Below are positions 10,101 through 36,555 of a stretch of 36,555 nt of DNA, piece after piece. Every line of letters starts with the position of its first letter. The first letter of the stretch is position 1. The position numbers and the translations under genes were made by a program. Source of the DNA: Methylococcales bacterium. GTDB taxonomy: Bacteria > Pseudomonadota > Gammaproteobacteria > Methylococcales > JAZGGE01. A model generated the notes under the pieces. That model ran no database searches, had not been told where the DNA came from, and was given only the letters and a program-made list of their open reading frames with translations. The stretch is from positions 1 through 36,555 of the forward strand of contig JAZGGE010000287.1 in assembly GCA_036480195.1 (NCBI GenBank), given 5' to 3'.

Positions 10101-10868
10101 AAAACGCTATTGGACGATGCGAAGACGATGCTTAACCAAATTGTTGACGAAAGATGGTTAAAGGCTCGAGCTGTTGTTGGCTTGTTTTCGGCGGCTAGTG
10201 AAGGCAATGATATCGTTATTTTCTCAGATGAAAATCGGAATGAAAAACGGGCCGTGCTTCATCATTTACGACAACAGAACAAAAAACCTGCTGAACGGCC
10301 AAACTATTGCCTGGCGGATTTTATTGCGCCGCAGGATAGTGGCAAACCGGACTATATCGGTGCCTTTGCAGTGACCGCCGGCATCGGAATAGAGGAGCAT
10401 TTTCAACGCTTTGAGGCCGACCACAACGATTATCATGCCATCATGCTAAAGGCATTGGCTGATCGGCTGGCGGAAGCGCTTGCCGAAAAAATGCATCATG
10501 ATATTCGGACAGCCATCTGGAAGTACGCGGATGATAAAGATCTGTCTATGGAACAGATGATCAAGGAGAAATACCAGGGCATCCGTCCGGCACCTGGTTA
10601 TCCCGCTTGCCCGGATCATACTGAAAAAGCAACTTTGTTTTCTTTACTTGACGTCGAAGAACAAGCCGGTATCACTCTAACGGAAAGTTACGCCATGTAT
10701 CCTGCCGCTTCGGTGAGTGGTTGGTATTTTTCTCACCCCGACGCTCAATACTTCAATGTTGGGAAGCTTGGGCGAGATCAAATCGAAGATTACGCTCAGC
10801 GTAAAAGCTTGACTGTGAAGGAAACGGAACGATGGTTGTCAGCAAATCTGGCTTATGAACCTGACTAA
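7164..10868 (+). CDS. metH: Cobalamin-dependent methionine synthase
   Basis: [28 protein letters not shown] (B12-binding) and [12 protein letters not shown]. Start at ATG 7164 or 7170. Confidence 0.97.
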
Positions 10869-10910
10869 AAATGGATTTCATTTGCTACGGTTTCTATTCT
10901 CCGATACCTC
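10859..10910 (+). repeat. Remnant right end of element family B
   Basis: CTGACTAAAAATGGATTTCATTTGCTACGGTTTCTATTCTCCGATACCTC versus B1 end CTGACTCAAAATGGGTTTCCCTCGCTACGGTTTCTATTCTCGGACAGCCTC. Confidence 0.7.
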
Positions 10911-10919
10911 CTAACCAAT

Positions 10920-17513: not shown

Positions 17514-17570
17514 CTCTAATGCCATTAAGTCTCAACGGATTTTCTCATGAAAGTCACTCTATCTTCAGAC

Positions 17571-17773
17571 TACCAGATCTCATTACAGTGAATTAAAAGG
17601 TTATAGAAATTCATGTGATTTTGTTCTGAGCCTAAAATAACGACTTCTCTTCGTAGGAAGGGCTTTAGCCGCGATCTCGGGCTAGATCGCGGCTAAAGCC
17701 CTTCCTACGAAGGTATTAAAACAAATTCCGTGAATTTCTATAACCTTTTGATTCACTGTGATGAGATCAGGTA
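17571..17773. mobile_element. MITE-like element F: about 54-bp imperfect terminal inverted repeats, TA at both ends
   Basis: 17571-17625 TACCAGATCTCATTACAGTGAATTAAAAGGTTATAGAAATTCA... pairs with 17720-17773 ...TGAATTTCTATAACCTTTTGATTCACTGTGATGAGATCAGGTA. Confidence 0.75.
17649..17712. repeat. GTAG-type REP doublet (REPIN-like perfect hairpin) nested in element F
   Basis: 29-bp perfect arms CTTCGTAGGAAGGGCTTTAGCCGCGATCT / AGATCGCGGCTAAAGCCCTTCCTACGAAG with a 6-nt loop. Confidence 0.85.
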
Positions 17774-17864
17774 TCCTGAGTCTAGTCAGACTTGGTCTGA
17801 TTGGCAATCAAAACTTCTTGACCTATTAATCTTAAAAAAGTATTTCAGCACCCCTAAACCGGAA

Positions 17865-20800: not shown

Positions 20801-20894
20801 TTTCTGAAAAATAGGCAAGTCCTTGCTTAACTAAGTCACTGGAAGCAATGGAATGCAAGCGTTCGGTATCGTAGAGGAAAAAATCATTATCCAT
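17865..20894 (-). CDS. SWIM zinc finger-SNF2 family ATPase/helicase with C-terminal extension
   Basis: Two SWIM motifs (CDC..CRH, CTCPD..CKH); LADDMGLGKT, DEAQ, SGTPLEN, QRIARIHRLGQ. Start ATG 20894 or TTG 20900. Confidence 0.92.
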   Translation of the reverse strand: MDNDFFLYDTERLHSIASSDLVKQGLAYFSENRVFALDRVDDRLTAQVEDAEDDEPYWLELCHKDGQLIASCDCHEGTDVCRHTVAVLYAYADQFGFEEDVKTLGSAVDEAIQERIKKGHNEVRVKLVEGNLGFGTWQASSIVSTTHWQKSYRVQIRSLDQRMNYCTCPDLASNRLGTCKHIEAVVHYAKKQPGYAKLKAAGCPVSFVHLVWESATRPVIRVHHKPEIEAGLAAIALEYFDQNGVFSGRLPDDFYRFSEQVCGRDDFQLGDDVIQFVRQCADDAAQAIRGQKIEQEILRTNGVLPGIKARLFPYQSEGVAFLASRGRALLADDMGLGKTLQAISATSWLADNEGVQRVLVLCPASLKHQWAREIQKFTARSVQIIQGNVESRMVQYRADALFFIINYELVLRDLTVINETLKADLIILDEAQRIKNWRTKLASTVKLIPSRYVFVLSGTPLENRLEDLYSLLQVVDARVLGPLWRCLLDFHITDERGKVIGYRNLSELRRRIASVMLRRNRSLVSDQLPDRTEISLDIPMTDEQLELHDYALSTAGRLAHIAKRRPLTPGEQNRMMAALQQARMACNAAGLVDKETEGSPKLDELARLLEELCLQSNRKVVVFSQWALMTEMVESLARSLKLGCVRLHGGVPSHKRGDLMDRFQNDAAVQVFISTDAGGTGLNLQSATALINLDMPWNPAVLDQRIARIHRLGQKQKVQIFLLLAENSYEQRVASLVKGKRALFDNVISPDASEDVVGVSKKMLQTLIDDLAEAEPKMAQEVTEQLAPVAESVQKDSEILVKETTPVVEEDESRLRQLIEEIQNVFSNRLERILGSGGGLLVVVNPMNDVDEQVAEDLSQSELPIAVIDSRTLRSLQRLGTASPVAETRVIFESAESEEKPENLLLEAARQKLNSAEVLLQQGCTAGVMDLLASALVLKVAGLNGQTQPPSLDSAVVWLYSEIVPAQVLTPEQAGTMVRIISLSQSPEVPDALVEQSFVDVNLLFSVLI

Positions 20895-20928
20895 GTTCAA
20901 ATCTTCTGCTAAATCGGGATGTCGGTAT

Positions 20929-21090
20929 TATACCTTTCGCGTTCAAGAATGCCCGTTTTGGGTGGGTATATTTTTGTGAAGGGCTAGAGGTAGAACCGCA
21001 GGAAGAGTCATCTCTTTCAAGGTTCTACAACGACGCTCTTCGCGCAAAGATGTGCGCTGAAAATGGGTATTCTTGGGCGCGAGAGGTATA
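20929..21090. mobile_element. MITE-like element A1 (162 bp, TATACC...GGTATA termini)
   Basis: Left end TATACCTTTCGCGTTCAAGAATGCCCGTTTT versus reverse complement of the right end, TATACCTCTCGCGCCCAAGAATACCCATTTT. Confidence 0.8.
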
Positions 21091-21109
21091 AATGACATTA
21101 GAAGCGTTA

Positions 21110-23128
21110 TTACTCAGTCACCATCGCGTCCCGCGCTGCCATAAGAAGCGTTTGTGCCTGGGTTAATACCTGCTTTCTGCGGTTCCAACTCCAGGTTTTA
21201 CGAGCTTTTTTCTGTTTCTTGATGGCTCTATTGACCAGAATGAGTGCTTCTGGGTTCGCGTTAACCTGGCCACCCATCAGAACTTCTGTGGCATCGCTAG
21301 AATCTGCCAGAGCCTGATGAATTATTTTTCTGCTGTGGCGGATACGGTTTAATCCCTTGGAATGTTCCAATTGCTGGTAGGCACTATCTACATTATCGAC
21401 TGCGCTGAGTGTTCTGAGGAACAGGGCGATGGCAACGACAGTGGACGACTCCATCTTGATGCCACGATCGTCAGCATTGTTAAAGGCATCACTATTGTAG
21501 AATGCGACCGCCTCTTCAATGGTGTTGACGGAGTGATTGTGGAAGAAGGGTGCCGTATCGGCACGGAAGGCGTCCACCATGCTGAATTTTTTATTTCCGT
21601 AACAGGGTTGATCATTATTGATACCGCAATCGCTATTGACAGTATCGCCAAATCCTCCATCAATAGGAATTGTGGCGTCAATCAGTCGGTGCATTGGGTG
21701 AGGGAGATCTTCAATTCCGGTGTTGCGATTGCCGTTTGCCAGGGTACTGGAACTGATGGCTCCGGCATGGAAGTGGCAGCCTTTGCATTCTCCTGTGCCC
21801 ATAGTGAAAGGCCCGCTGGAAGGATCCTTTGAGTGAAACAGTTCCTTACCCTTTTCGACGATCGGACTGCTAAAAGCCATCGAATCCAGGTTCCAGGGAT
21901 CTTGTCGGCCAAGAGACAGAAGATAGGCTTCAATGGCATCGAGTTCATCTTCAGTAGGAAGCCGAAAATCCTCTCCCTCTGTGCGGCCAAGTGTTCTTGG
22001 GAGATGCTGGATAATTGCCCCGATAACAAACATTCGCAAACTGCCGCAATTGGGAGAGCCGTCCCCAGACCAGCCAAGCATATCTTCGCAGTGCTGAATT
22101 TCCGGATCTTTGGCTGCAGGTTCCTTACCCATGGATAATCCCAAGGAGAGAGTATGGGGTGCGGCCCGAAGTGTAGCAGGCTTGTCAAACCCATCTATAT
22201 TCGCTTTAAATAAAGCTAATTGCCGAATTAACTGAGCATTTTCGAGGTTGGCGAGGTCTGGATTATTTTCATGGACGAATAATGGATCATCATCGCGTAG
22301 TTTGGCGATATAGTTGGGGTCGATGGTATGGTTGTTATCCAGTCGGTGACAGGTTTCACAAGTACGGCCATTTCCATCAAAGGTTTCGTTGATGAATAGA
22401 TCCCGGCCTTTGGCGATTTGTTCGCCAAGTATCACTTCCAGATTTCGATGTAGGCCGTCGGCAAGTACAGGTTTTGGCAGCAAGAATTGGAAGGGTGTGG
22501 CGACTCTTCCCTGATTTTCAGGATGGCTGATATTGCCGATATCAGTAATTGTCCATAGCTGATCGGTATAAAACAAACGCTGGAAAAAGCTTGGGCTGCC
22601 GTACAATAATCCACCATTATTCGGAGTTTGGTTTACCTTTGCGACAACGACCTGATCAAGCTTGAAGCCTTCGAGTTTCGAACGATTTAGCCAGGTGAGA
22701 ATTTGATGAGTTTCATCTTTGTATTGCAAGCTTCCGATCTTTACTTTTCGGTTTGCGCTATGGCTTAAATCGGGTTCTTTCTGGTTGTCAATAAACCAGA
22801 GGTCGTATTCGTTCCGGTTATCAAGGCCCATTACAGTAACTTCAGTCTTACCATCTAGCAGATTGATTTGGATAGATCCAGTCGCGGAAAGGGTTTCTTT
22901 TGAAAAAGCACGGCTATAGGCAAGCGGTAGACTTAAAATTTCTCCACCTTGATTCCTGGTGTAGCGTTGTTTCCATCTTTCAAAGGTAAGCTTTAGAGTT
23001 TTTGGATTGCCTCTACCCGTGATGAGCTGGGTTTCATTGTTACCTGGGTCGTATTTTTGCAGGGTAATGGATAACCCTGTAATTAACATGGTTATTAATG
23101 CCAAACAGAGTAGCGTTTTTGTTCTCAT
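21110..23128 (-). CDS. Exported or membrane-anchored di-heme cytochrome c, peroxidase/MauG superfamily, with N-terminal extra domain
   Basis: CETCH and CKGCH heme motifs; GRDLF and GKELF helices; ADTAPFFHN; N-terminal hydrophobic segment. Confidence 0.82.
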   Translation of the reverse strand: MRTKTLLCLALITMLITGLSITLQKYDPGNNETQLITGRGNPKTLKLTFERWKQRYTRNQGGEILSLPLAYSRAFSKETLSATGSIQINLLDGKTEVTVMGLDNRNEYDLWFIDNQKEPDLSHSANRKVKIGSLQYKDETHQILTWLNRSKLEGFKLDQVVVAKVNQTPNNGGLLYGSPSFFQRLFYTDQLWTITDIGNISHPENQGRVATPFQFLLPKPVLADGLHRNLEVILGEQIAKGRDLFINETFDGNGRTCETCHRLDNNHTIDPNYIAKLRDDDPLFVHENNPDLANLENAQLIRQLALFKANIDGFDKPATLRAAPHTLSLGLSMGKEPAAKDPEIQHCEDMLGWSGDGSPNCGSLRMFVIGAIIQHLPRTLGRTEGEDFRLPTEDELDAIEAYLLSLGRQDPWNLDSMAFSSPIVEKGKELFHSKDPSSGPFTMGTGECKGCHFHAGAISSSTLANGNRNTGIEDLPHPMHRLIDATIPIDGGFGDTVNSDCGINNDQPCYGNKKFSMVDAFRADTAPFFHNHSVNTIEEAVAFYNSDAFNNADDRGIKMESSTVVAIALFLRTLSAVDNVDSAYQQLEHSKGLNRIRHSRKIIHQALADSSDATEVLMGGQVNANPEALILVNRAIKKQKKARKTWSWNRRKQVLTQAQTLLMAARDAMVTE

Positions 23129-23202
23129 CGTCCAATCCTCTTAGTTTTCTTTGTTTTCGGTTATGGTAGGATTTGATAGCACTCCCTCTCCCTATGGGGA
23201 GT

Positions 23203-23297
23203 TATACCTCTCGCGCCCAAGAATACCCATTTTTAGCGTGCATCTTTTCGCGAAGAGCGTCGTTGTAGAACCTTGAAAGAGGCGGTTCTACGCCTAG
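23203..23297. mobile_element. Element A2: inverted, truncated copy of A1 ending at CTAG
   Basis: Matches the reverse complement of the right part of A1 with an internal deletion of about 12 nt. Confidence 0.85.
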
Positions 23298-23455
23298 GAG
23301 GCTGTCCGAGAATAGAGAATCTACTGCGGAAAAGCCCATTTTGGCCAGATTTTTCGATCATTTTCGTTAAATAGCCCACTATTCGCCTCAAATGATCGAA
23401 AAATCTGACTCAAAATGGGTTTCCCTCGCTACGGTTTCTATTCTCGGACAGCCTC
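23298..23455. mobile_element. MITE B1 (158 bp) flanked by CTAG duplication
   Basis: Perfect 18-bp TIR GAGGCTGTCCGAGAATAG / CTATTCTCGGACAGCCTC; CTAG at 23294-97 and 23456-59. Confidence 0.88.
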
Positions 23456-23459
23456 CTAG

Positions 23460-23520
23460 TCAGCTATAGGAAAGACAATGCCTTATGAGCATCAAAAAGC
23501 ATTGTCATTCCTATAGCTGA
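23460..23520. mobile_element. Mini hairpin element C (61 bp) flanked by CTAG
   Basis: TCAGCTATAGGAAAGACAATGC / GCATTGTCATTCCTATAGCTGA; CTAG at 23456-59 and 23521-24. Confidence 0.75.
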
Positions 23521-23563
23521 CTAGCCACATTGCGGATAGGCACTTACCTACGTTAATAGTTAA

Positions 23564-23579
23564 AGCACTATGCATGCCA
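23564..23579 (-). promoter_or_regulatory. Candidate sigma-54 (-24/-12) promoter for the di-heme gene
   Basis: Minus strand TGGCATGCATAGTGCT, with GG-N10-GC spacing, pointing toward the ATG at 23128. Confidence 0.5.
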
Positions 23580-23790
23580 TTCGTAGAGCCAAAAATAGTA
23601 TTATCGGTTTGTGAGTTAAGGGCTACGGCGTTCTCGTCCGGAGATTAGAAATAGGAACTTGAAAAATAACGGAGGAAGATTCGAATGAGGCCATTGGAAC
23701 CCTAATTATTTATGTTATATGCCATATTGAGTAGGGCATATGACGCAAACCTGTTGTGGGCGAATAGTAACTCGCCTTTTCATCAGTTTT

Positions 23791-23852
23791 AGGTGTTGTA
23801 CAAATAGTGGCGTAGTTTGTCTATGCACCTATGTTGTATGTCCTGATGTGAA
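23791..23852 (-). repeat. Degenerate core of element family E
   Basis: TGTTGTACAAATAGTGGCGTAGTTTGTCTATGCACCTATGTTGT resembles 24970-25012 and the reverse complement of the E1 core. Confidence 0.55.
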
Positions 23853-24158
23853 ATTAACGTACGGCCTTAGTCGTGTCCTTTGATACAACCTCGACGGAGT
23901 GCCGGTCTCGGGATTCTATCTAATTTTTGTTCTTAGCGACTAGGCTTGACTGTAGGGGCTTAGGCGCGACAAATAGGGTACGGTCGAGTGTTCACTTAAA
24001 AAGATACTGGAAATTCCTTTATGGTTGCGGTACGCTTATATCTATTGCATGATGTTCAGCATTTTTCAGAAGTACCTTCCCAGTTCTCTCCTGTAAATTG
24101 CCAGGTAGTGTTGCAATTCAATGTTCTTTTATTTATACATCTAAAGGTGGTTAATACA

Positions 24159-24365
24159 ATGGTTTCAGGTACTGTAAAATGGTTTAACGACGGAAAAGGT
24201 TATGGGTTTATTTCGCCTGCCGATGGTAGTGCCGATGTTTTTGTCCACTTTTCTTCGATTGCCTCTGAAGGTTTTCGATCCTTATCTGAAGGTCAAGCGG
24301 TTCGTTATGAGGTAGAAGACGGTCCCAAGGGGCCGCAAGCAGCACAAGTAATGGTTGATAGCTAG
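24159..24365 (+). CDS. Cold-shock protein (CspA family)
   Basis: [15 protein letters not shown] and DVFVHFS (RNP1/RNP2). ATG 24159 follows AAAGGTGG. Confidence 0.95.
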
Positions 24366-24511
24366 GAGACTGTCCTGGAATAGGGAGCCAATTGTGAGAA
24401 AACTGTTTGGCCAGATTTTTGTTAAATAGCCCACTATTCACCTCAATTGATCTAAGAATCTGATTCCGAAGGGCTTTCTCCTCGCAACAGTTTCTATTCT
24501 CGGACAGCCTC
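24366..24511. mobile_element. MITE B2, degenerate copy inserted at the csp stop codon
   Basis: CTAG-GAGACTGTCCTGGAATAG ... CTATTCTCGGACAGCCTC-CTGG. Internal GTTAAATAGCCCACTATTC is shared with B1. Confidence 0.85.
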
Positions 24512-24644
24512 CTGGCCATAGACTTGGTTGCCTGTTTTGACCCCTGCAGCAAGCAAGCTGTGGGCTTTTTCGTTTTTCCATAACAAAGTTAATAAGATTT
24601 GTCATGGGGTTCGATACCTTCTCTAACTTAAATGGTTATGCAAT

Positions 24645-24917
24645 TTGAAAAGAATATTTGTTGGAAGTTTACCCTCTGAAGCCACAGAAGAATCTGTTAC
24701 GGCATTGTTCTCTGAGTTTGGTACAGTGCGTGGAATACAACTTATTACGGACGTATTTAGTGGCCATTGTCGGGGCTTTGGATTTGTTGATATGGAAGGG
24801 CATGAAGCGAGAGCAGCTATTGCAGGGCTTGATGGCAAGATGCACGCCGGAAAGCCTTTAAAAGTTAGGTTTGAAGACGTGCGGGCTTCTCGTGGTAAAA
24901 AAGGCCGACGCCGTTAG
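24645..24917 (+). CDS. RRM-domain RNA-binding protein
   Basis: IFVGSL (RNP2), RGFGFVDM (RNP1), basic tail; TTG start. Confidence 0.9.
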   Translation: MKRIFVGSLPSEATEESVTALFSEFGTVRGIQLITDVFSGHCRGFGFVDMEGHEARAAIAGLDGKMHAGKPLKVRFEDVRASRGKKGRRR

Positions 24918-25074
24918 GAATCGATCAAATAAAGCTAGAATATGTCTTGTTTTTTTAGCCGTCTTCTCATGCTGTGCAAATAGTGGTGCAGTTTGTTACG
25001 CGCCTATTTGTGCGTTTTGAATATGAATAAAATCCGGTGCGGGTTTCAGTTTTTTATTTAGTTCTGGTTCCTTA
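24914..25074 (-). repeat. Degenerate near-full-length element of family E beginning at the RRM stop codon
   Basis: GCGCCTATTTGTGCGTTTTGAATATGAATAAAATCC matches the E1 reverse complement GCGCCTGTTTCTGCGCCTTGAAGATGAAAAAAAATCC. Weak terminal IR. Confidence 0.6.
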
Positions 25075-25112
25075 ACAAACAAAGAATTAACCTAAGGTTT
25101 TTATGAATCAAA

Positions 25113-25592
25113 ATGGTGGTATGTAAAGTCTACGAAGGGCAGCTCCACATTCAGGATGCAAAATTTTGTCTTGTTGTATCACGGTTCAACAGTTTCATTG
25201 TCGAACAATTGCTCAATGGCGCGATTGACGCGTTATCCAGGCACGGTATTGATAAGCAGTCAATAGAAATTGTAAGAGCTCCAGGTGCTTTCGAATTACC
25301 TATTACTGTCCAGAGAGTGGCAAAAACAGGAACGTATGATGCAATTGTTGCGCTAGGTGCAGTAATACGAGGAGATACGCCACATTTTGAGTATGTTGCT
25401 GGGGAGTGTGTTAAGGGTATTGCTGGCGTTTCGCTCAGTTTTGATATCCCGGTTAGCTTTGGCGTTTTGACGGTTGATACACTGGAGCAAGCCATAGAAA
25501 GGGCGGGTACAAAAGCTGGAAATAAGGGTGCCGAGGCGGCATTGTCTGCCTTGGAAATGGTTAGTTTGTTTCGTGAGTTAGAAAAACGATGA
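25113..25592 (+). CDS. ribH: 6,7-dimethyl-8-ribityllumazine synthase
   Basis: [34 protein letters not shown]. Confidence 0.97.
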
Positions 25593-26035
25593 GTACTGCG
25601 CGAACCCAAGCGCGTCGCTGTGCTGTTCAAGCACTTTATCAGTGGCAAGTGGCTGGTCAAGAGTTATGCAATATCGAAAAACAGTTTCTGGAAGATCCCG
25701 ATTATATTATTGGTCAGTCAAGCTATTTCCGTGAGCTATTGTATGGTGTCCCTAAAGATTTAGGGCGAATCGATGCTGCGTTGAGCCAGTTTGTCGATCG
25801 ACCGATAGAGAAACTTGATCCCGTTGAACGCGCGATATTACGGATTGGAGCGTACGAATTGCTTCACCGTTTGGATATTCCCTTTAAGGTCGTTCTCAAC
25901 GAAGGAATCAATTTGGCAAAACGGTTCGGGGCAACTGAGAGCCATAAATATGTGAATGGTGTGCTGCATAAAGTCGCTAGAAAGCATCGGACAGTAGAAA
26001 GGCAGACTTATATCGAGCCGGCCTCAACGGGGTAG
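25589..26035 (+). CDS. nusB: Transcription antitermination factor NusB
   Basis: [28 protein letters not shown]; ATGA overlap with ribH. Confidence 0.97.
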
Positions 26036-26036
26036 C

Positions 26037-27017
26037 GTGTCGCTTACAGAATTTGATCTGATCCGACGGTATTTCCTTCGCAAAAAAACAACTAGACATT
26101 CCGCTACGGTTTTGGGGATAGGCGATGATTGTGCTTTGTTGTCGATGGACGAAAAGTACGAACTGGCAGTTACCATAGATACAATGGTGGAAGGAACGCA
26201 TTTTTTCCCGGGAGTTAATCCGGTATCATTGGGACACAAAGCATTAGCGGTAAATCTAAGTGATTTGGCTGCGATGGGTGCTGATCCTCGTTGGATTACC
26301 TTGGGATTAACGTTGCCAAATGCAGACGAGGGTTGGCTGAATGGATTTGCCAGGGGATTGTTCCAATTAGCCGATAAGTTCTCTGTGGATTTGATTGGCG
26401 GCGATACGACTCGTGGACCCTTGGCTGTATCGATACAAGCTCTCGGGGTATTGCCCAAAAGTACGGCGTTATTTCGTGGGGCTGCACAAACTGGTGATTT
26501 GCTTTTTGTCACCGGTTATATCGGAGATGCTGGCATTGGACTTCTGATGGAACAACAGAAATTGCCGTTTCGAGATGAGCAGGCGCTTAGAAAATTGCAT
26601 TTCCCGCAGCCTCAAGTTAATGTTGGCTTGGCAATTCGAACGATGGCGAATGCCTGTATCGATATTTCCGACGGGCTATTAGCCGATCTCGGTCATATTT
26701 TGGAAGAAAGCAATGTCGGGGCAACCATCAACTTTGAAAAAATTCCTTTTTCACATTCCGTTCAGCGATATATTAGGGAAAGTTGTGATTGGCGGTTTCC
26801 TTTAGGTGCTGGTGATGACTATGAGCTCTGTTTTACCGTAGAGTCTGGACGGGAATCTGAGTTACATAGAGCTATGAGTAGGCTTGGTACTCCGTATACA
26901 TGCATAGGAAGGATTGAAGAAACTCCTGGAATTCGGCTTTTAAAAGAAGGCGAATTGCAGACTGTTTCTGCTGCAGGGTATCGGCATTTTTCCGCAGTAG
27001 AGCGGGGTGGTCATTGA
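26037..27017 (+). CDS. thiL: Thiamine-monophosphate kinase
   Basis: EFDLI, GIGDDCA, NLSDLAAMG, GGDTT, DISDGL, GDDYEL. Confidence 0.96.
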   Translation: MSLTEFDLIRRYFLRKKTTRHSATVLGIGDDCALLSMDEKYELAVTIDTMVEGTHFFPGVNPVSLGHKALAVNLSDLAAMGADPRWITLGLTLPNADEGWLNGFARGLFQLADKFSVDLIGGDTTRGPLAVSIQALGVLPKSTALFRGAAQTGDLLFVTGYIGDAGIGLLMEQQKLPFRDEQALRKLHFPQPQVNVGLAIRTMANACIDISDGLLADLGHILEESNVGATINFEKIPFSHSVQRYIRESCDWRFPLGAGDDYELCFTVESGRESELHRAMSRLGTPYTCIGRIEETPGIRLLKEGELQTVSAAGYRHFSAVERGGH

Positions 27018-27072
27018 ACTGCTTTCATCTGATTTCAGTCCGAGTGTCTCTATCTTTTGCTGTTTCGATGTA

Positions 27073-27279
27073 ATGCAACGCATATATGATGCTCAAGATG
27101 TAATAGAGGGAAATATTCTTAAAGGCTTGTTGGAACAGTGCGGAGTAGCCGCAAATATTACTGGATACTATCTTCAAGGAGGAATTGGCGAACTTCCGGT
27201 TAGCGGGACGGTTTCGATATGGGTAGAGAACGAAGATGTAGAACAGGCTCAGAGTATAGTTGATGAGTATAGAAAATAA
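27073..27279 (+). CDS. DUF2007 / putative signal-transducing small protein
   Basis: MQRIYDAQDVIEGNILKGLLEQCGV...LQGGIGELP pattern. Start trimmed to ATG 27073. Confidence 0.75.
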   Translation: MQRIYDAQDVIEGNILKGLLEQCGVAANITGYYLQGGIGELPVSGTVSIWVENEDVEQAQSIVDEYRK

Positions 27280-27325
27280 GAATACATCGTGTGCATCAAT
27301 TCATTGGAGATAATATTAAGTAAAA

Positions 27326-27811
27326 ATGACTATAGACGTAGACAGTTTTAAAAAAGCCCTTCAAGATTGGGCATCAGGCGTTACCGTTGTCACGACAAAA
27401 ACGGATCGATTTGGTTGCCAGGGGATGACGGCCACAGCGTTTTCCAGTGTATCGGTCGATCCACCTCTGATTTTAGTTTGCCTCAACAAATCGGCGGATA
27501 CTGCTGAAGGCATAAAGGAAAGTCAATGTTTTGCTGTCAATATTCTCAATTCGGATCAACAGGAGATTTCCAATAGTTTTGCCGGTGGGAGTACCCAGGA
27601 AGAACGCTTTAAAAGTGTCACTTGGAGTGAATCTACAACGGGTGCTCCAATTCTTGATTCAAGCCTTGCATCACTCGACTGCCGGGTCGTGGATCAGGTT
27701 TTTGCGGGGACTCACTGGATTATTATTGGTGAAGTGCAAGACGTGATTTGTCGATCTGGAGAACCGCTCTTGTACTATCAGGGTGGCTACCAAACACTTT
27801 TGAAGCCCTGA
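27326..27811 (+). CDS. Flavin reductase-like family protein
   Basis: ASGVTVVT, GMTATAFSSVSVDPPLILVC, GTHWIIIG, PLLY. Confidence 0.92.
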   Translation: MTIDVDSFKKALQDWASGVTVVTTKTDRFGCQGMTATAFSSVSVDPPLILVCLNKSADTAEGIKESQCFAVNILNSDQQEISNSFAGGSTQEERFKSVTWSESTTGAPILDSSLASLDCRVVDQVFAGTHWIIIGEVQDVICRSGEPLLYYQGGYQTLLKP

Positions 27812-27813
27812 TC

Positions 27814-27866
27814 TCCGCGATAATTTACCCACCCAGAACGGGCATCCTTAAACGGAAAAGATTATA
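27814..27866. repeat. Remnant of element A (the end that is missing from A2)
   Basis: AATTTACCCACCCAGAACGGGCATCCTTAAACGGAAAAGATTATA versus A1 reverse complement AATATACCCACCCAAAACGGGCATTCTTGAACGCGAAAGGTATA. Confidence 0.7.
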
Positions 27867-28078
27867 TAATTCAGGCTATTATGGGCCTTGGGTCTGGCCA
27901 AACCCAGATTCTTTTCTAGAAACAATTCCGTCCCTATTTCTTCGCAGCTAGTATGGCGGTAGATACGAAAACTTGACACCATTACCCCCTTGTGGCGTAT
28001 ATTTAGCTGTGTCGTCACGAAAAGTTACGGCATTCTCTATGTCAATAATAATATACTTTAAATTAGAGGGGGATTTCA

Positions 28079-28777
28079 ATGGAAATAATTACTACGAGTG
28101 TCGGTTTGGAAATGCTAATGCGTTTTGCCCATTTTTTGGCGGGGATTACGTGGATCGGATTACTTTACTACTTCAATTTCGTACAAACAGAGTACTTCAA
28201 GGAAGCCGAGGCTTCTTCCAAGTCTGATGCGATACGTGGGCTTGTTCCTCGTGCTTTATGGTGGTTTCGTTGGGGAGCGATGGTTACATTGCTGACCGGG
28301 ATTGCAATTTTTGCAATTCGAGGCGGTGGTATGTCGATGGATATCTATATTGGTGCGTTGCTGGGTATTTTTATGTTTGTTAACGTTTGGATGATCATAT
28401 GGCCCAGCCAACAAGTAGTCATTGCTTCAGCTGAAGCAGTCGCTGGGGGAGGGAAGGCCTTACCTGATGCGGCTGACTCTCTTGCTAAAGCAGGCTTGGC
28501 TTCCAGAACCAATACACTGTTTTCAATTCCTATGCTTTTCTTTATGGGAGCATCCTCGCACTATCCACACGCCTTTAGTGGGTTCGCTTTCCTACTTGCT
28601 GTCGTCATTATTCTTGTTTTGGAATTTAATGGCGCGTATCCGGTTATAAAAGGCAATGACTTGGTCAAAAAACTGCCTGCAGCAGGTAAAATGGGTCCCA
28701 TGGCAAGCGTTAAGGGAGTGATACACAGTGGGTTAGGATTAACTGCCGTTCTATTTTTGATATTGGATATGCTGTAA
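28079..28777 (+). CDS. PuuD/urate oxidase N-terminal-like membrane protein lacking a cytochrome c domain
   Basis: RFAHFLAGITWIGLLYYFNF, WFRWGA, MFVNVWMIIWPSQ, ASRTNT..SIPMLFFM..SSHY. No CxxCH. Confidence 0.8.
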   Translation: MEIITTSVGLEMLMRFAHFLAGITWIGLLYYFNFVQTEYFKEAEASSKSDAIRGLVPRALWWFRWGAMVTLLTGIAIFAIRGGGMSMDIYIGALLGIFMFVNVWMIIWPSQQVVIASAEAVAGGGKALPDAADSLAKAGLASRTNTLFSIPMLFFMGASSHYPHAFSGFAFLLAVVIILVLEFNGAYPVIKGNDLVKKLPAAGKMGPMASVKGVIHSGLGLTAVLFLILDML

Positions 28778-28811
28778 CACAGTAATCCTTCAATTTTTTT
28801 GAGAAGCTTTA

Positions 28812-28853
28812 TCCTATAGACTCCGTCAATACGATATTGGCGGAGATCTAGGA
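28812..28853. terminator. Hairpin between convergent genes, candidate terminator
   Basis: CTCCGTCAATA-CGA-TATTGGCGGAG with extended flanking pairing, followed by a T-run on the + strand. Confidence 0.5.
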
Positions 28854-28884
28854 GTTTTTATTTCTTGGACAGTGACTTAGTTTG

Positions 28885-29268
28885 CTACCCTCTTGAAGAG
28901 GCAAGAGCGGAGAGATCTCTTTCGAGTAGCTCGCTATCCCCAAGGTTTAGTTCCACTAACCGCCTAAGCTCTGATATGCTATCGAGATCAATGTTCTCGC
29001 AATGAAATCCTGCTTTGTTTCCTTCCATATGTGCCAGGGTGACGGTCATTGTGATTTGCACATCATCAGCCAAGGCAAGAGTAACAAGGTAGGGAGATTT
29101 GGTTTCCCCTGACCAGGGCGCTTGAAATTCCAGCAAGCAACCTTTCAAGGAAAGGTCGGAGACCTGACATGGCCAGGATTCTCTTGAATTGGATAGAGTT
29201 GCATCAGCAAAATACATAACCCGGTTAAAATTACGCTTATCTTCAAAAACTTTTTCCGCTTCCTTCAT
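28885..29268 (-). CDS. PilZ domain protein
   Basis: RNFNR (RxxxR) and DLSLKG (DxSxxG); LRRLVELNLGD tail. Confidence 0.92.
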   Translation of the reverse strand: MKEAEKVFEDKRNFNRVMYFADATLSNSRESWPCQVSDLSLKGCLLEFQAPWSGETKSPYLVTLALADDVQITMTVTLAHMEGNKAGFHCENIDLDSISELRRLVELNLGDSELLERDLSALASSRG

Positions 29269-29906
29269 TTTTCATCCTCCAAATAAAATCGCAGAGTATT
29301 TTTCTCAATTTCCAGTGTGTCACCGTTTTGTAATTTAATGCTTTCTTCACCAATTTCGTCCTTATTGAGTTTAATAAGAGCGTTGTTTTCCAGCGGCGAT
29401 ATAAAGAAACCATCTTTGCGTCTTGCAATAACGGCAACACCTGATCCAGGCTTGCCTAGCCGGGTCATTGCTCTGTTCAAAGGAATGATACGGCCAATGT
29501 TTTTGCCTCGTAATATTTGCAGATTGGCTGCGATATTCGATGTTTCGGACGACACCTTATTGCTAGTTGCAAAGGCGGTAAGTTCTTTGAAATATTTGTC
29601 TTCTGTTGGAATGGGCGAAGCTTTTGAAGAATAAAGCAGGGTATGCTTTCCAATTGTTATAACATCGCCATCAATTAGATTATGTTCTGTTCTTTTTTGA
29701 TTATTTACCAGAATGGACGCGCTTACATTGGCCTGTTTCAGGTTTGCGCCATCGCTATCCAATGAAACGATTGCATGGGTTGATGCAACTGCGAGGCTGT
29801 CAATCGATATGGAATTGGACAGGGCTCGACCAATAGAGATTTCTCCTTGCTCGAAGCTATAGGTCTCAATGAAGCGTCCCTTGAAGGTGAGCGTAAATTT
29901 CGCCAT
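29265..29906 (-). CDS. FHA domain protein (tandem FHA-like)
   Basis: ISIGR...SLAVASTHA...LIDGDVITIGKH, with a second FHA-like module. Overlaps the PilZ start. Confidence 0.88.
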   Translation of the reverse strand: MAKFTLTFKGRFIETYSFEQGEISIGRALSNSISIDSLAVASTHAIVSLDSDGANLKQANVSASILVNNQKRTEHNLIDGDVITIGKHTLLYSSKASPIPTEDKYFKELTAFATSNKVSSETSNIAANLQILRGKNIGRIIPLNRAMTRLGKPGSGVAVIARRKDGFFISPLENNALIKLNKDEIGEESIKLQNGDTLEIEKNTLRFYLEDEK

Positions 29907-30124
29907 TATTTGCAGAATATTCAGTTACTAAAATGCAGTGAAAGCTCCTCGATAGACCCGGTCCCACTAGGAAAACAAATCATTGGTGTTCGGTGCTCAC
30001 CTTTTCTTGTTCCATAAAGAAAAACCCGATAACTATCTGAATCCATGAGTCCAAGACAGATGGGGTGCAGGTATTGGTCTTCAATTTAAGTATAGACATA
30101 AAACCGGCAATGCAAAGCGAATTT

Positions 30125-31390
30125 TTACTTTTTCTTCTTACGATGTTTCTTTGTCGAAAGAAATCGTACCTTTTTCACTGCATTCCCATCAAGACTGATA
30201 ATTTCAAGAGGATAGTTGAAAAGTGTGAAATTGGTACCCGGTTCAGGGATGTTTTCCAGAAACTCAATGATTAATCCGTTTAGGGTTTTAGGTCCCTCTA
30301 CCGGGAATTCCCAACCGGTTGCTCGATTGAGCTCCCGTACTGTAATACTGGCATCAACGAGGAAACTGCCATCCTTTTGTTTTTGTACGTCTTGGGGGTT
30401 GGAAACAAACTCTCCAACGATTTCCTGAAGTATGTTTTCTAATGTAATGAGTCCGAGTACGTCGCCATATTCATCAACAACCAGACCAATCCGCTCATCT
30501 TCCTGTTTGAAGTTCACCAGCTGGTTATGCATTGATGTATTTTCTGGGATGAAGTACGTTTTTTTCAGATTGTTGATAATGGTTTCATGATCGAAATTTT
30601 TATTGGACAGTAAAGCCAGGATTTTACGCAGGTGAAGAAATCCGATAACTTGGTCGATACTTTTCCTATAGACGGGGAGGCGAGTGTGGGGGCTGTTTTT
30701 AAGTTGATTAACGATCACCTCTAGTCGATCTTCCAGGTCTATACCCTGGATTTCGTTACGTGGCACCATGACATCTTCAACAGTTGCTGATTCCAGATCA
30801 AGAATGCCCAGTAGCATATTCTGGTATCGCTGTGGCATTAAGGCATCGGCTTCAGCGACCACTGTTCGTAATTCTTCCTTGCTGATGTTGTCGCGGCCTA
30901 GAGTGTTAGGATTGACGCCGACCAGTCTGAGTAGCTGATTGGCTATGAGATTTACTGTCCAGACGATGGGATAAAGCAATCGCAGCAAGGGAACAAACAC
31001 CCAGGATGCAGGAAAAGCCAGTTTTTCCGGATTTATAGCTGCCAGGGTTTTTGGTGCGACTTCGGCAAAAATTAAAATAACCAAGGTAAGGATGCCTGCT
31101 GCTCCGGCAATGCCTGCTTCACCAAATAACCTTAAGGCAATGACCGTACTCAGTGACGATGCCAAGATGTTGACGAAGTTATTGCCGAGAAGAATCAGGC
31201 CAATGAGCCGATCCGGACGTTCAAGGAGCTTCTGTGCTCGAATCGCCCCGGAATGTTTGGTCTTTACGAGATGTCGTAACCGATAGCGGTTGAGCGTCAT
31301 CAGCGCCGTTTCGGAACCGGAAAAAAAAGCGGATAGAAGGATAAGAACAAAAAGTATGCTAAAAAGTATACTCAGTGGAATGTCGTTCAA
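30125..31390 (-). CDS. yfjD: HlyC/CorC (CNNM-CBS-CorC) family transporter-associated protein
   Basis: SAFFSGSETALMTLNRYRL, ILLGNNFVNI, HTRLPVY, VVDEYG, KTLNGLI. Confidence 0.9.
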   Translation of the reverse strand: MNDIPLSILFSILFVLILLSAFFSGSETALMTLNRYRLRHLVKTKHSGAIRAQKLLERPDRLIGLILLGNNFVNILASSLSTVIALRLFGEAGIAGAAGILTLVILIFAEVAPKTLAAINPEKLAFPASWVFVPLLRLLYPIVWTVNLIANQLLRLVGVNPNTLGRDNISKEELRTVVAEADALMPQRYQNMLLGILDLESATVEDVMVPRNEIQGIDLEDRLEVIVNQLKNSPHTRLPVYRKSIDQVIGFLHLRKILALLSNKNFDHETIINNLKKTYFIPENTSMHNQLVNFKQEDERIGLVVDEYGDVLGLITLENILQEIVGEFVSNPQDVQKQKDGSFLVDASITVRELNRATGWEFPVEGPKTLNGLIIEFLENIPEPGTNFTLFNYPLEIISLDGNAVKKVRFLSTKKHRKKKK

Positions 31391-31495
31391 GTGGTTAAAA
31401 TTTAGTGTAGTTAAAACGTTGAGTTTCTAAGGCGAAAAGGAGTTAATGTCAAGTGCAACAGCACCCTGCTAACTTGCTGCTCTGTGGCAAGAGTT

Positions 31496-32092
31496 CTAAC
31501 CTTCGGAAAGTAAAATATATTTGAGGTGTAATTGTTCAACCTGTTTTTCCAGTAGATCAATTTTATCGTTGTTGGTAATGATATCGTCTGCTGATTTTAA
31601 CCGCTGATCACGGGATACTTGAGATTGTATTATGCGCTGGATTTCCTGACGGCTTAGTTTATCACGTTCGGCAACCCTTTGAATTTGAGTTTCAACGGGA
31701 CAGTCGATGACAAGTATGTGGTCAACGAACCCTTCCAGTCCGGTTTCCAGCAGCAGTGGAATACAAAAGACACAATAGGGAGCGATCAGCTGCTGCTGTT
31801 CTTTATCCATCGCTTTTATTATCAGGGGGTGAAGGATCGTTTCGAGCTGTTTCCGTTTGCCATCTGATTCGAATACGATAGTTCGGAGTTTACTGCGATT
31901 GAGCTGTCCTTCTTCCGTCAATAATCCTGGCCCGAATTGTTTTACAATTTGATCCAATGCCGGCTGTCCAGGGTTTACAAGTTGCCTCGCAATTACATCG
32001 GCCTCGATAACAGGGATTTCGCGGGTAGAGAATAGATTTGCTACGGTCGTTTTACCGCAGCCTATCCCTCCTGTAAGACCGATTTTTAACAT
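31496..32092 (-). CDS. coaE: Dephospho-CoA kinase
   Basis: MLKIGLTGGIGCGKT, ADVIAR, LETILHP, IPLLLE. Start trimmed to ATG 32092. Confidence 0.95.
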   Translation of the reverse strand: MLKIGLTGGIGCGKTTVANLFSTREIPVIEADVIARQLVNPGQPALDQIVKQFGPGLLTEEGQLNRSKLRTIVFESDGKRKQLETILHPLIIKAMDKEQQQLIAPYCVFCIPLLLETGLEGFVDHILVIDCPVETQIQRVAERDKLSRQEIQRIIQSQVSRDQRLKSADDIITNNDKIDLLEKQVEQLHLKYILLSEG

Positions 32093-32149
32093 ATGGATTA
32101 TATTGTATCTGGTACCGAAAAGTGACTCAATTTTTAGTTCGAACAATCG

Positions 32150-32314
32150 TATAAGTACCAGAGCATAGTTAATTTGACAGTTTTGTGCAGGATTTTTTTT
32201 CATCTTCAAGGCGCAGAAACAGGCGCATAGTGCACTATGTAACTGTTTTTGCAACGCGGAAGATGAGAAAAAAGACAAGCAAACTGTTAAATTAATTATG
32301 CGGAGGTACTTATA
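32150..32314. mobile_element. MITE-like element E1: 165-bp imperfect palindrome with TATAAGTACC...GGTACTTATA ends
   Basis: Arms of about 80 nt pair along nearly the whole length, centred on CATAGTGCACTATG. Confidence 0.82.
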
Positions 32315-32315
32315 A

Positions 32316-33194
32316 TCAGCCCGGTATTCCGATCGACGTTAGATAATAAGCAATGATTCTTTCACCCCAAATCAAGGCGATAAACCCGGCAGCTGCGAGA
32401 TAGGGTCCAAAGGGGATAGGTGTCTGGCGATCATGGTTGAAAAATAGCATCATTGAGATTCCAATGATCGCTCCGACCAACGACGAAAGGAGGATGATCA
32501 GGGGTAGGAATTGCCATCCCATCCAGGCACCTAGCAAGGATAGGAGTTTAAAATCTCCGTAGCCCATACCTTCTTTACCAGTAACTAGCTTGAAAAGATG
32601 GTAGACGAGCCATAAGGTTAAATAGCCGGCGACTGCGCCGATAATACTTGCCGGGCTATCCGTATAGATTCCGAATACTGATATGAATAAGCCTAACCAA
32701 AGTAGCGGTAAGGTTATAGAATCGGGTAATAGCTGATGGTCGATATCAATGAGAGATAGTGAGATCAGGGACCAAACTAAAATGAATGCCAGTAGTGCTT
32801 CCCAGCCAAATCCGAAATGCCAGGCAGCGAGAGCGGTGCAAACACTGGTAAACAATTCGACCAAAGGGTAGCGCGCCGAGATTTTGGTATTGCAATGGGC
32901 GCAGCGTCCTTTAAGGAATAGATAGCTTAGAATGGGGATGTTTTCCCAAGGTGCAATCGTATGATTGCAAGCGGGGCAACAAGAACCCGGAGTTAACAGG
33001 TTAAGTGCTGGCTTATTGTCTTCCGGTTCCGGCAGTTCGAGAAATTCAGTGCATTCCCTGCGCCAATTCCGTTCCATCATAAGTGGGAGCCGATAGACTA
33101 CAACATTTATAAAACTCCCGACTAATAACCCGAATAATCCACTTAATAGAATGAAGAATAATGGATTGTGCTCTAGAACATAAAAAAGCGTCAC
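32316..33194 (-). CDS. pilD: Type IV prepilin peptidase/N-methyltransferase
   Basis: GSFINVVVYRLP, two CxxC, IDIDHQLLPD, GMGYGDFKL, PFGPYLA. Confidence 0.97.
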   Translation of the reverse strand: MTLFYVLEHNPLFFILLSGLFGLLVGSFINVVVYRLPLMMERNWRRECTEFLELPEPEDNKPALNLLTPGSCCPACNHTIAPWENIPILSYLFLKGRCAHCNTKISARYPLVELFTSVCTALAAWHFGFGWEALLAFILVWSLISLSLIDIDHQLLPDSITLPLLWLGLFISVFGIYTDSPASIIGAVAGYLTLWLVYHLFKLVTGKEGMGYGDFKLLSLLGAWMGWQFLPLIILLSSLVGAIIGISMMLFFNHDRQTPIPFGPYLAAAGFIALIWGERIIAYYLTSIGIPG

Positions 33195-36379: not shown

Positions 36380-36474
36380 TTAGCAATAAATTTAATTTGA
36401 GATTTTTGTTTGATAAGGATCTGGGTTAATCTTAAGCATAGAAGATCACCGTGGATTGTCCAATTTTTGGCTAG

Positions 36475-36555
36475 AAGGCTGTCCGAGAATAGAAACCGTA
36501 GCGAGGGAAACCCATTTTGGGTCAGATTTTTCGATCATTTGAGGCGAATAGTGGG
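36475..36555. mobile_element. MITE B3, inverted copy truncated by window edge
   Basis: After CTAG, 81 nt match the reverse complement of the B1 right half with 2 mismatches. Confidence 0.88.

Follow-up and report, generated by a model that had tools for sequence, protein, structure and literature searches.

The ERIC (or IRU) sequences of the Enterobacterales, 127-bp transposable elements of the miniature inverted-repeat type (MITEs) that form a small imperfect palindrome with TATAC...GTATA ends, and the Correia (or NEMIS) repeats of Neisseria, TA-flanked MITEs of about 105 or 155 bp, have been studied for decades and are used in strain typing. For ERIC, the available sections of a 2008 review state that no DNA motifs beyond the inverted repeats have been found (PMC2229807), and those of two later reviews, from 2011 (PMC3184786) and 2024 (PMC10969869), and of a survey from 2024 (PMC11602168) make no mention of a loop shared between MITE families; a limited literature check yielded no paper on MITEs of methanotrophs or on a loop common to MITE families. 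Here we examine a stretch of 36,555 nucleotides (nt) of a Methylococcales bacterium (assembly GCA_036480195.1, contig JAZGGE010000287.1, positions 1 to 36,555; "the window"), in which three MITE families, A, B and E, carry the same asymmetric internal loop around different helices. Its invariant unit is 5'-GGCR-3' facing 5'-YAAC-3', and its full outer form is 5'-AAGGCR facing 5'-YAACGC. The loop marks an old MITE superfamily of about 160 nt that is found across Pseudomonadota. It also turns up in A and B, two families with arms not detectably similar to those of the superfamily, and in ERIC and Correia. We propose, with a probability of about 0.55, that in the folded top strand the loop serves as a site of recognition or architecture and that it matters for the propagation of the elements.

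A sequence-only reading of the window had singled out one site in each family, and the sequences and coordinates of all three match the DNA exactly (Table 1). The motif reads AGGCG-TAGAACC...GGTTCTA-CAACG in A2 and AGGCG-AATAG-TGGG-CTATT-TAACG in B1, and in E1 it occurs twice, nested, as AGGCG-CAGAAAC-[AGGCG-CATAG-TGCA-CTATG-TAAC]-TGTTTTTG-CAACG. The termini are likewise as first described: TATACC for A, TAAGTACC with flanking TA for E, and CTAG followed by GAGGCTGTCC for B. As a bare string, AGGCG-N8-38-YAACG shows no significant excess in the window, with 5 matches where 2.48 +/- 1.64 are expected (12 of 100 shuffles yield at least as many), and one of the five (30678-30713) belongs to none of the hairpins.

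The whole assembly (3.57 Mb in 419 contigs) gives a clearer picture when the hairpin is part of the pattern, which then runs from AGGCG through a stem of five or more pairs, a loop and the returning stem to YAACG. There are 182 such matches, compared with 2 when the flanks are swapped, 8 when they are reversed and 2 when they are reversed and swapped; most are copies of families A and B, so that the 182 are not independent events. The motif is real and non-random. Comparison of the genome with itself yields 829 repeated segments, mostly of 150-200 nt and together 144 kb, or about 4% of the genome. Those that bear the motif comprise family A (157 full copies), family B (96 full copies), an E-type superfamily (270 profile matches, or 190 distinct loci once matches on both strands are merged), family 7, also called G, with TACTAGTACTC ends (16 segments), and family 8, which has A-like ends around another centre (14 segments). 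Elements of A, B and E are 160-170 nt long and occur as many dispersed copies; they have terminal inverted repeats, and their family consensus sequences and folds pair from end to end, as expected of MITEs. The element ends include GGAGCGAGG, GGAACGTGC, TATACTTCGC and GAGGCTGTCC, and those of the E-type subfamilies vary further, among others as TTAGGAACGGG, TTAGGTGGTT, TAAGGAGCTGG, TAAGGCAACT and the TAAGTACC first assigned to E, now subfamily f13 (12 full copies genome-wide). Other repeat families lack the motif, namely one with TTAACCCTGGATCC ends (48 segments), a REP-like one reading GTAGGAG...GCTTTAGCCGCGAT (at least 44) and two or three more.

The motif is a purine-rich internal loop of the long hairpin that forms the body of the MITE, and not a free-standing element. 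No convincing solo motif hairpin outside MITEs was found among the genome-wide clusters of hairpin matches; the single-member clusters (21 of 26) mostly look like chance matches in unique sequence, with a few divergent E-like elements, and on this ground we rejected an independently mobile mini-element. In minimum free energy folds of E1, A, B and L155, one of two ERIC copies folded, the loop has a common local geometry precisely where the palindromes break symmetry, as the sequence-only reading had held: helix-NA-[G]-GC-[R...] faces [...Y]-AA-[C]-GCN-helix, in which the first G pairs with C and R with Y, and these two pairs close a 2x2 mismatch of G·A and C·A. Folding with DNA parameters leaves the motif region as an open internal loop, and all six strands of E1, A1 and B1 then fold far better than shuffles (z from -4.8 to -11.4). 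A shifted register, with GCG paired to CGC and AAG and YAA bulged out, was considered and set aside: in the E-type alignment, R, the sixth letter of the hexamer, changes in step with Y rather than with the C that this register would require. The inner loop is more variable than the outer one, occurring as AGGCG/TAAC, GCAGG/ACGAA, GCACG/GCGAA and GCAGG/GGCAA; family A has GCAGG/TCAA, its consensus over the 157 full copies being CTAGGCG-TAGAACC-GCAGG-AAGAG-TCAT-CTCTT-TCAA-GGTTCTA-CAACG. A second asymmetric pair lies farther out in the E-type arms, where GCGCMGGAT on the 5' side faces AGACAAGNAAG on the 3' side (for example 32183-32198/32268-32285). It is kept in phylum-level members and again sets G or C of the 5' arm against A of the 3' arm.

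The helices around the loop change while the loop does not. We aligned 20 E-type cores of this genome, chosen for their different helices and gapless over 69 nt, and scored them on a structure of helix 1, loop, helix 2, loop and apical helix. In these seeds 91.5% of cells pair, compared with 74.8% in shuffles (none of 500 reached the observed value); 13 pairs are changed on both sides, and controls in which the structure was slid along the alignment pair at 29-47%. A covariance model built from this alignment, R1, places the core in at least 145 places in its own genome (150 of 1146 candidates scored). Beyond that genome it has matches in 15 of 60 genomes from the same order, 14 of 150 sampled across the class and 12 of 150 sampled across the phylum, 10 of which are labelled as other classes; such matches are often multi-copy, and the counts are lower bounds. 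From these we drew 46 representatives spread over 33 genomes; the own genome supplied 11 of them, the order 14, the class 13 and the phylum 8. Near-duplicates and weak matches were excluded, as were a copy carrying a 28-nt insertion, a copy that lacks the outer loop and one with a short apex (L109, L110, L115, L116, L119, L120, L122, L124-L129, L135, L137, L145, L146, L148 and L293).

In the set of 46, 91.3% of cells pair compared with 70.1% in shuffles, cells changed on both sides number 211 compared with 57, and slid controls pair at 27-43%. Changes on both sides affect 6 of the 7 pairs of helix 1 and all 8 of helix 2, and the apical stem covaries as well (CATAG/CTATG, CATAC/GTATG, TATAG/CTATA). 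Within the loop, the last letter of AAGGCR covaries with Y (G-C in 31, A-U in 8, other in 7), and the internal G-C pair is kept in all 46. Column identity is 0.978 for AAGGC and 0.946 for AACG, as against 0.674 and 0.599 for the helices, a contrast that is inflated because every cross-genome member was found with R1, which rewards conserved loops. The proposition that stems vary with pairing preserved while the loop letters stay fixed, first drawn from the window alone, is supported in the E-type cores.

The same letters occur in ERIC and Correia. Their resemblance had been raised in the sequence-only reading (AAGGCG...CAACGC), and it holds in real copies, with AAGGCR and YAACGC at mirror positions. 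In the 12 ERIC copies of E. coli K-12, which were located through the ERIC2 primer, AAGGCG is present in the left arm of 11 and YAACGC in the right arm of 5, both being present in 4; the other 7 have a different right arm without YAACGC. ERIC resembles A and the TATACTTCGC-type E elements in its palindromic form and its ends, and E1 in the predicted geometry of the L155 loop and in the better folding of its AAGGCG strand. Unlike E, it has no similarity at the level of R1 (no match in E. coli K-12, best E 0.23), and its centre is a different, longer hairpin; read by eye, with no alignment run, the K-12 copies share with A and E just TATAC and the pair of hexamers, and A and E do not match the ERIC consensus. 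For Correia, a scan of genome contigs gave 120 loci, mostly in Neisseria and Eikenella records, of which 29 are full copies bounded by two exact 19-nt ends. In 29 of 29, AAGGCR occupies nt 27-32 and so immediately follows the inverted repeat of 26 nt, and 26 of 29 have YAACGC at the mirror position; AAGGCA is paired with TAACGC in 2 of 3. These repeats share with the elements of the window their TA flanks, their small size and the mirror hexamers, but A, B and E have neither their TATAGTGGATTAA... termini nor the 26-bp inverted repeat. The Correia interior is not one continuous hairpin, its strand asymmetry is small, and its GGCG could pair with the CGCC that follows CAA, a shifted register that finds no support in the E-type covariation. 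No further similarity was detected between ERIC, Correia, A and the E core.

The nearest precedent for how the motif might work is REP/REPIN, short repeated hairpins mobilised by RAYT transposases. They are recognised in folded, single-stranded form and combine invariant letters with an adjoining stem of variable sequence. A REP is a short, GC-rich hairpin that carries GTAG on its 5' side and has neither inverted-repeat ends nor target duplication. A, B and E differ from them in being 160-nt inverted-repeat elements, and the REP-like families of this genome (4, 17 and 18) are separate from them and motif-free.

The two strands of an element are not equivalent. Folded as RNA, the AAGGCR strand is more stable than its complement in E1 (-78.9 and -55.8 kcal/mol, respectively), A1 (-97.8 and -58.4), B1 (-100.6 and -93.4), ERIC L155 (-70.6 and -47.9), a second ERIC copy (-52.3 and -42.6) and a Correia copy (-64.8 and -61.2). 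It also has the lower RNA folding energy in 31 of 31 elements of other genomes (mean difference -13.5) and in 9 of 9 elements of other classes, and DNA parameters favour the same strand for E1, A1 and B1. Part of the difference stems from the loops themselves. The arms outside the modelled core contribute too: their top strand holds 104 G·T mismatches compared with 42 A·C, with G·T in excess in 21 elements, A·C in 3 and a tie in 4, although sign tests on such counts overstate the case because elements from related genomes are not independent. An A copy in contig C268, near the family consensus, has 9 G·T and no A·C. The elements compared in this way have at least 15 kinds of termini, by our reading of the sequences. 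Since one strand is preferred, the pattern fits a folded single strand rather than duplex DNA.

This bears on whether AAGGCG and CAACGC could instead be two protein-binding sequences that mark left and right and are read in the unfolded duplex. They always lie at mirror positions and are not complements of each other, and distinct left and right ends are common in transposons, both of which would suit such sites. Against this, the distance between the halves varies from 14 nt (B and the inner E motif) through 37-38 nt (A and the outer E motif) to about 90 nt in the 155-nt Correia element, where AAGGCR occupies nt 27-32 and YAACGC ends at nt 128; by reading, not measurement, it is longer still in ERIC. 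The distance from the element ends likewise ranges from 26 to about 70 nt, and only in the fold are the halves always juxtaposed. Duplex sites would also leave the covariation of the helices and the one-strand excess of G·T unexplained, and we regard them as highly improbable. Of the original suggestion, a structural signal read by a shared factor, the structural part is supported by the fold, the covariation and the preference for one strand; the shared factor would be putative.

How the families are related is less simple than their first description as unrelated would have it. A profile of the E core finds no match in the A consensus, in keeping with that description. The E-type subfamilies, however, share a homologous core of about 95 nt and constitute one superfamily, and in the B consensus the E-core profile matches the apical module AGGCG-NATAG-N4-CTATN-TAAC and nothing else (8.5 bits, with a maximum of 3.7 in 200 shuffles). 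In related genomes, A-type ends occur with two different centres, whose helices are TAGAACC/GGTTCTA and CAAAAAC/GGTTTTG and which are both bracketed by AGGCG...CAACG, and TATACTTCGCRCGG ends accompany E-type cores elsewhere, both in other genomes and on contig C297 of the own genome. The centre thus appears to be a module that travels among elements with different ends, and the motif, as the sequence-only reading proposed, is tied to no single type of terminus, being found with at least four or five. Judged from the sequences, modular exchange or descent of a shared centre would be at least as likely as independent convergence. The families do not fit simple deletion from one recent ancestor, nor are they clearly independent inventions.

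Such modularity raises the question of whether the loop does anything at all. It might have been inherited with a central module shuffled among MITEs by nesting and recombination, its conservation reflecting recent spread, horizontal transfer and ascertainment, and the covariation reflecting arm-to-arm correction within palindromes. Nested and chimeric elements do abound (family 8, and the 24 composites in which B sits at CTAG beside the A motif), the apical module is shared whole by B and the E core, the motif is conserved within families about as well as its neighbours, and R1 brings its ascertainment. Yet the adjoining helices have changed often with pairing kept, whereas the loop is 95-98% identical over three taxonomic levels, and the closing R-Y pair covaries between G-C and A-U in both the E-type set and Correia. 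The asymmetry of the arms follows the orientation of the motif (21 compared with 3), which correction between the arms of a duplex does not predict, and the loop unites ERIC, Correia, A and the E core in the face of their dissimilarity elsewhere. A loop without function therefore seems improbable to us.

The composites deserve a description of their own. Family B and a small CTAG-flanked palindrome repeatedly occupy the single CTAG that family A contains, right on the 5' border of its motif (window 23294-23297). The 24 A::B segments (cluster 5) are heterogeneous, with a mean pairwise identity of 0.77 and B in both orientations; they look like repeated insertions at a hot spot, the CTAG of A, and not like a single amplified composite. 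Family 16 (for example C324:5867-5934; 7 segments) is a 68-nt derivative made of the A left arm joined to its own reverse complement, with no centre, and A ends may be able to move without the central hairpin.

Within a family, the motif fares little better than its surroundings. Divergence in the motif and in the rest of the element is 9.1% and 12.6% for A (p 4e-5), 6.7% and 7.3% for B, and 4.2% and 4.4% for E/f13, and the variants look like drift. The expectation that the motif would be more conserved than neighbouring positions is thus barely or not at all borne out at this level, and this part of the sequence-only reading fails there. Nor is there a bias of orientation relative to flanking genes, as crudely called open reading frames go, either in family A (46 sense, 33 antisense), B (22 and 18) or E (39 and 47) or in the pooled 107 sense and 98 antisense; an apparent 53 to 27 bias among all structural matches was not reproduced per family. 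The intactness of the motif has no link to orientation. Because the motif decays like the rest of the element and lies in either orientation to genes, selection would act at the propagation of elements and not on each resident copy; conservation that shows between lineages and not among resident copies points to selection on the copies that propagate.

These data also bear on the main rival to our proposal, a role in RNA processing. A MITE transcribed in the top orientation would fold, and its GGCR/YAAC loops would either steer or restrict cutting by RNase III or RNase E, or else be bound by another RNA-binding protein, thereby setting the stability of the flanking mRNA; lineages with harmlessly handled RNA would leave more surviving insertions. 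The far greater stability of the top-strand RNA folds of E1, A1 and ERIC L155, the lower energy of the top strand in 40 of 40 elements elsewhere and the excess of G·U-type pairs on the top strand speak for this. So do published accounts, in the sections available, that RNase III cuts Correia transcripts at their inverted repeats and that ERIC, depending on its orientation, unmasks a site for RNase E (PMC2229807, PMC10969869). The lack of orientation bias, the absence of any link between intactness and orientation and the ordinary decay of the motif in resident copies speak against it. A crude promoter scan found no promoter-like site inside A1, B1 or E1, and fewer sites overall than in shuffles. 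In addition, any mismatch would weaken a long double-stranded RNA, and this leaves letters that are fixed across a phylum unexplained. We consider a role in RNA processing possible, though doubtful. On the narrower question of whether the folded molecule is DNA or RNA, we lean slightly toward DNA.

If the loop matters for propagation, the question becomes by what means. Selection would act on the fold of the AAGGCR single strand, and the loop may be read by a factor needed for the mobilisation of elements or for the establishment of new copies; this putative factor could be a transposase domain or a conserved host protein. The ends of the superfamily, mostly GG...CC with a 3-bp TTA/TAA direct repeat or else TATAC, offer some guidance. 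Identical TTA or TAA is present on both sides in 11 of the 17 readable E-type seeds, most of which begin with GG; subfamily f13 has TAA...TTA within the inverted repeat, plus TA. The CTAG of B and the TA of A and f13 are palindromic, such that a duplication is indistinguishable from an inverted repeat. Most E-type subfamilies thus share the GG...CC ends and the 3-bp TWA of IS5/PIF-Harbinger ("Tourist-like") MITEs, which f13, A and B as written do not. The GG ends and TTA/TAA flanks of the E type, together with the GAGGCTGTCC of B at CTAG, fit the ends and targets of the IS5 family. We know of no report of a conserved central loop in MITEs derived from IS5/Harbinger elements.

Several observations weigh against the loop being a site that propagation depends on, besides the inflated contrast between loop and helices, the non-independence of related elements and the unbiased orientation to genes already given. 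No cognate transposase was found, in a search that was shallow and covered few places: DDE_Tnp_4 (PF13359) is absent from the own genome and from G002, G029 and G021 and has two matches in G009, with no matching ends in the loci inspected; DDE_Tnp_1 (PF01609) is present, but the six loci inspected have no matching ends; and a scan of the complete genome G009 for the TATACTTCGC terminus returned only pairs 160-210 bp apart. Insertion sequences may be unassembled in the 419 contigs of the own genome. Neither a binding factor nor a transcript came to light. The 3-bp direct repeats point to a transposase of the DDE type, and to our knowledge there is no precedent for such an enzyme needing a folded centre. 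Two abundant E subfamilies, f2 with 59 segments and f9, replace the outer loop by a perfect helix, and with the 68-nt A derivative these show that the outer loop, and indeed the whole centre of A, is not strictly needed. Wobbles within the core favour neither strand (G·T 71 and A·C 46 in helix 2, 2 and 51 in the apical stem). Finally, when the G-rich strand of each contig stands in for the leading strand (it carries 63.6% of crudely called genes), orientation is weakly biased for E (77 of 190, p 0.011) and unbiased for A (83 of 157) and B (48 of 96).

Several known structural and recombination motifs were considered. The K-turn, loop E, the 11-nt tetraloop receptor, dif/Xer, attC and the IHF consensus do not fit the sequences. 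The apical module GGCGCATAG-N4-CTATGTAAC resembles dif arms; a dif-like site has two 11-bp arms and a 6-8 bp spacer, and here the apical spacer is 4-5 nt and sequence-free, with 37 nt between the halves of the outer motif. An integron attC site has paired R boxes, 5' RYYYAAC ... GTTRRRY 3', whereas the YAAC of these hairpins belongs to the 3' arm and lies opposite GGCR instead of GTT. The stretch GCTATTTAACGAA of family B may resemble rrn boxA. An Rfam scan of window positions 20500-33000 with E up to 1 gave no match at the gathering score; the sub-threshold matches on the elements are to hairpin-like microRNA models, at 21.6-33.9 bits against cut-offs of 79-330.

Table 1. Copies, loops and motif sites of the MITE families in the window
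Feature	Position	Strand	Remarks
A1, full family A copy (TATACC...GGTATA)	20929..21091	+	central hairpin 20986-21032
A1 loops	20986-20990 (5'); 21028-21032 (3')	+	AGAGG in place of AGGCG (5', degenerate); CAACG (3')
A1 helix	20991-20997 / 21021-21027	+	TAGAACC / GGTTCTA
A1 inner loop and apex	within 20986-21032	+	GCAGG/TCAA; AAGAG-TCAT-CTCTT
A2, right-hand half copy of family A	23202..23293	-	ends at CTAG abutting B1; no A left arm beyond B1
A2 motif	23261..23295	-	AG of AGGCG lies within the CTAG shared with B1
B1, full family B copy (CTAG-GAGGCTGTCC...GGACAGCCTC-CTAG)	23294..23459	-	
B1 motif	23365..23388	-	fold: GA-[G]-GC-[G...] facing [...T]-AA-[C]-GA
Small palindrome between CTAG sites, belonging to a further repeat family	23456..23524		without motif; directly adjoins B1
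B2, degenerate B copy	24362..24518	-	motif decayed to AGGTG-AATAG-TGGG-CTATT-TAACA
E1, full copy, subfamily f13 of the E-type superfamily (TAAGTACC...GGTACTTA)	32152..32312	+	
E1 flanks	32150-32151 and 32313-32314		TA
E1 nested double motif	32209..32256	+	
E1 conserved 69-nt core	32199..32267	+	R1, 83.4 bits
B3, B copy cut by the window end	36459..36555	+	reaches ...TTTGAGGCGAATAGTGGG
B arm fragment	10858..10918	-	without motif

The surroundings of these copies have features of their own. The MetH encoded in the window shares 72% identity with MetH from assemblies of Methylococcaceae and Crenothrix, which places the host among the Methylococcales. Between A1 and A2 lies an open reading frame of 672 amino acids with no Pfam domain (21110-23128, minus strand); its neighbours are two large genes for SNF2-family helicases (13353-17513, plus strand, and 17865-20900, minus strand), one of them with a SWIM zinc finger. 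Between B1 and B2, positions 23979-24424 (plus strand) score weakly against the Rfam model of the cspA thermoregulator, with 30.6 bits where the cut-off is 78 (E 8.7e-5). A REP-like family, CTTCGTAGGAAGGGCTTTAGCCGCGATCT...AGATCGCGGCTAAAGCCCTTCCTACGAAG, is represented at 17551-17793, with a core palindrome at 17649-17712, and corresponds to genome families 4, 17 and 18; it has a GTAG-like start, at least 44 segments and no AGGCG/YAAC motif, and may belong to a RAYT-type REPIN system. G009 has a tandem array (L283 2650-3280; G009:C1, about 4884250-4884880) that repeats roughly every 213 bp and includes a REP-like GTGGGAGCGATCCCCAGATCGCGATCG unit; an A-like end, TATACCTTTCGCAC...GAGAAGGCG, follows the array at L283 position 3285. 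Genome G000 has a strong GC skew (an absolute skew of at least 0.02 in 356 of 419 contigs), and GCGATCGC occurs there in only 44 copies.

At the least, these results explain about 4% of a genome and provide a covariance model that finds such elements in distant genomes. If the loop is indeed fixed, framed by covarying helices and confined to one strand, the classic ERIC and Correia repeats would be linked to a superfamily present in three taxonomic tiers of Pseudomonadota, and the loop would serve as a simple marker for finding such elements and as a concrete, mutable target for asking how orphan MITEs are mobilised or tolerated. A bolder and rather unlikely extension is that GGCR/YAAC (AAGGCR/YAACGC) could be the common handle of orphan MITEs throughout the phylum, ERIC and Correia included. 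On this view a single conserved factor acting in trans would recognise the loop in the folded top strand and would mobilise or establish the elements irrespective of their ends. Such a factor could be either a protein of the host or a mobilisation enzyme that has escaped recognition, and its existence would account for the failure to link any cognate transposase to orphan MITEs.

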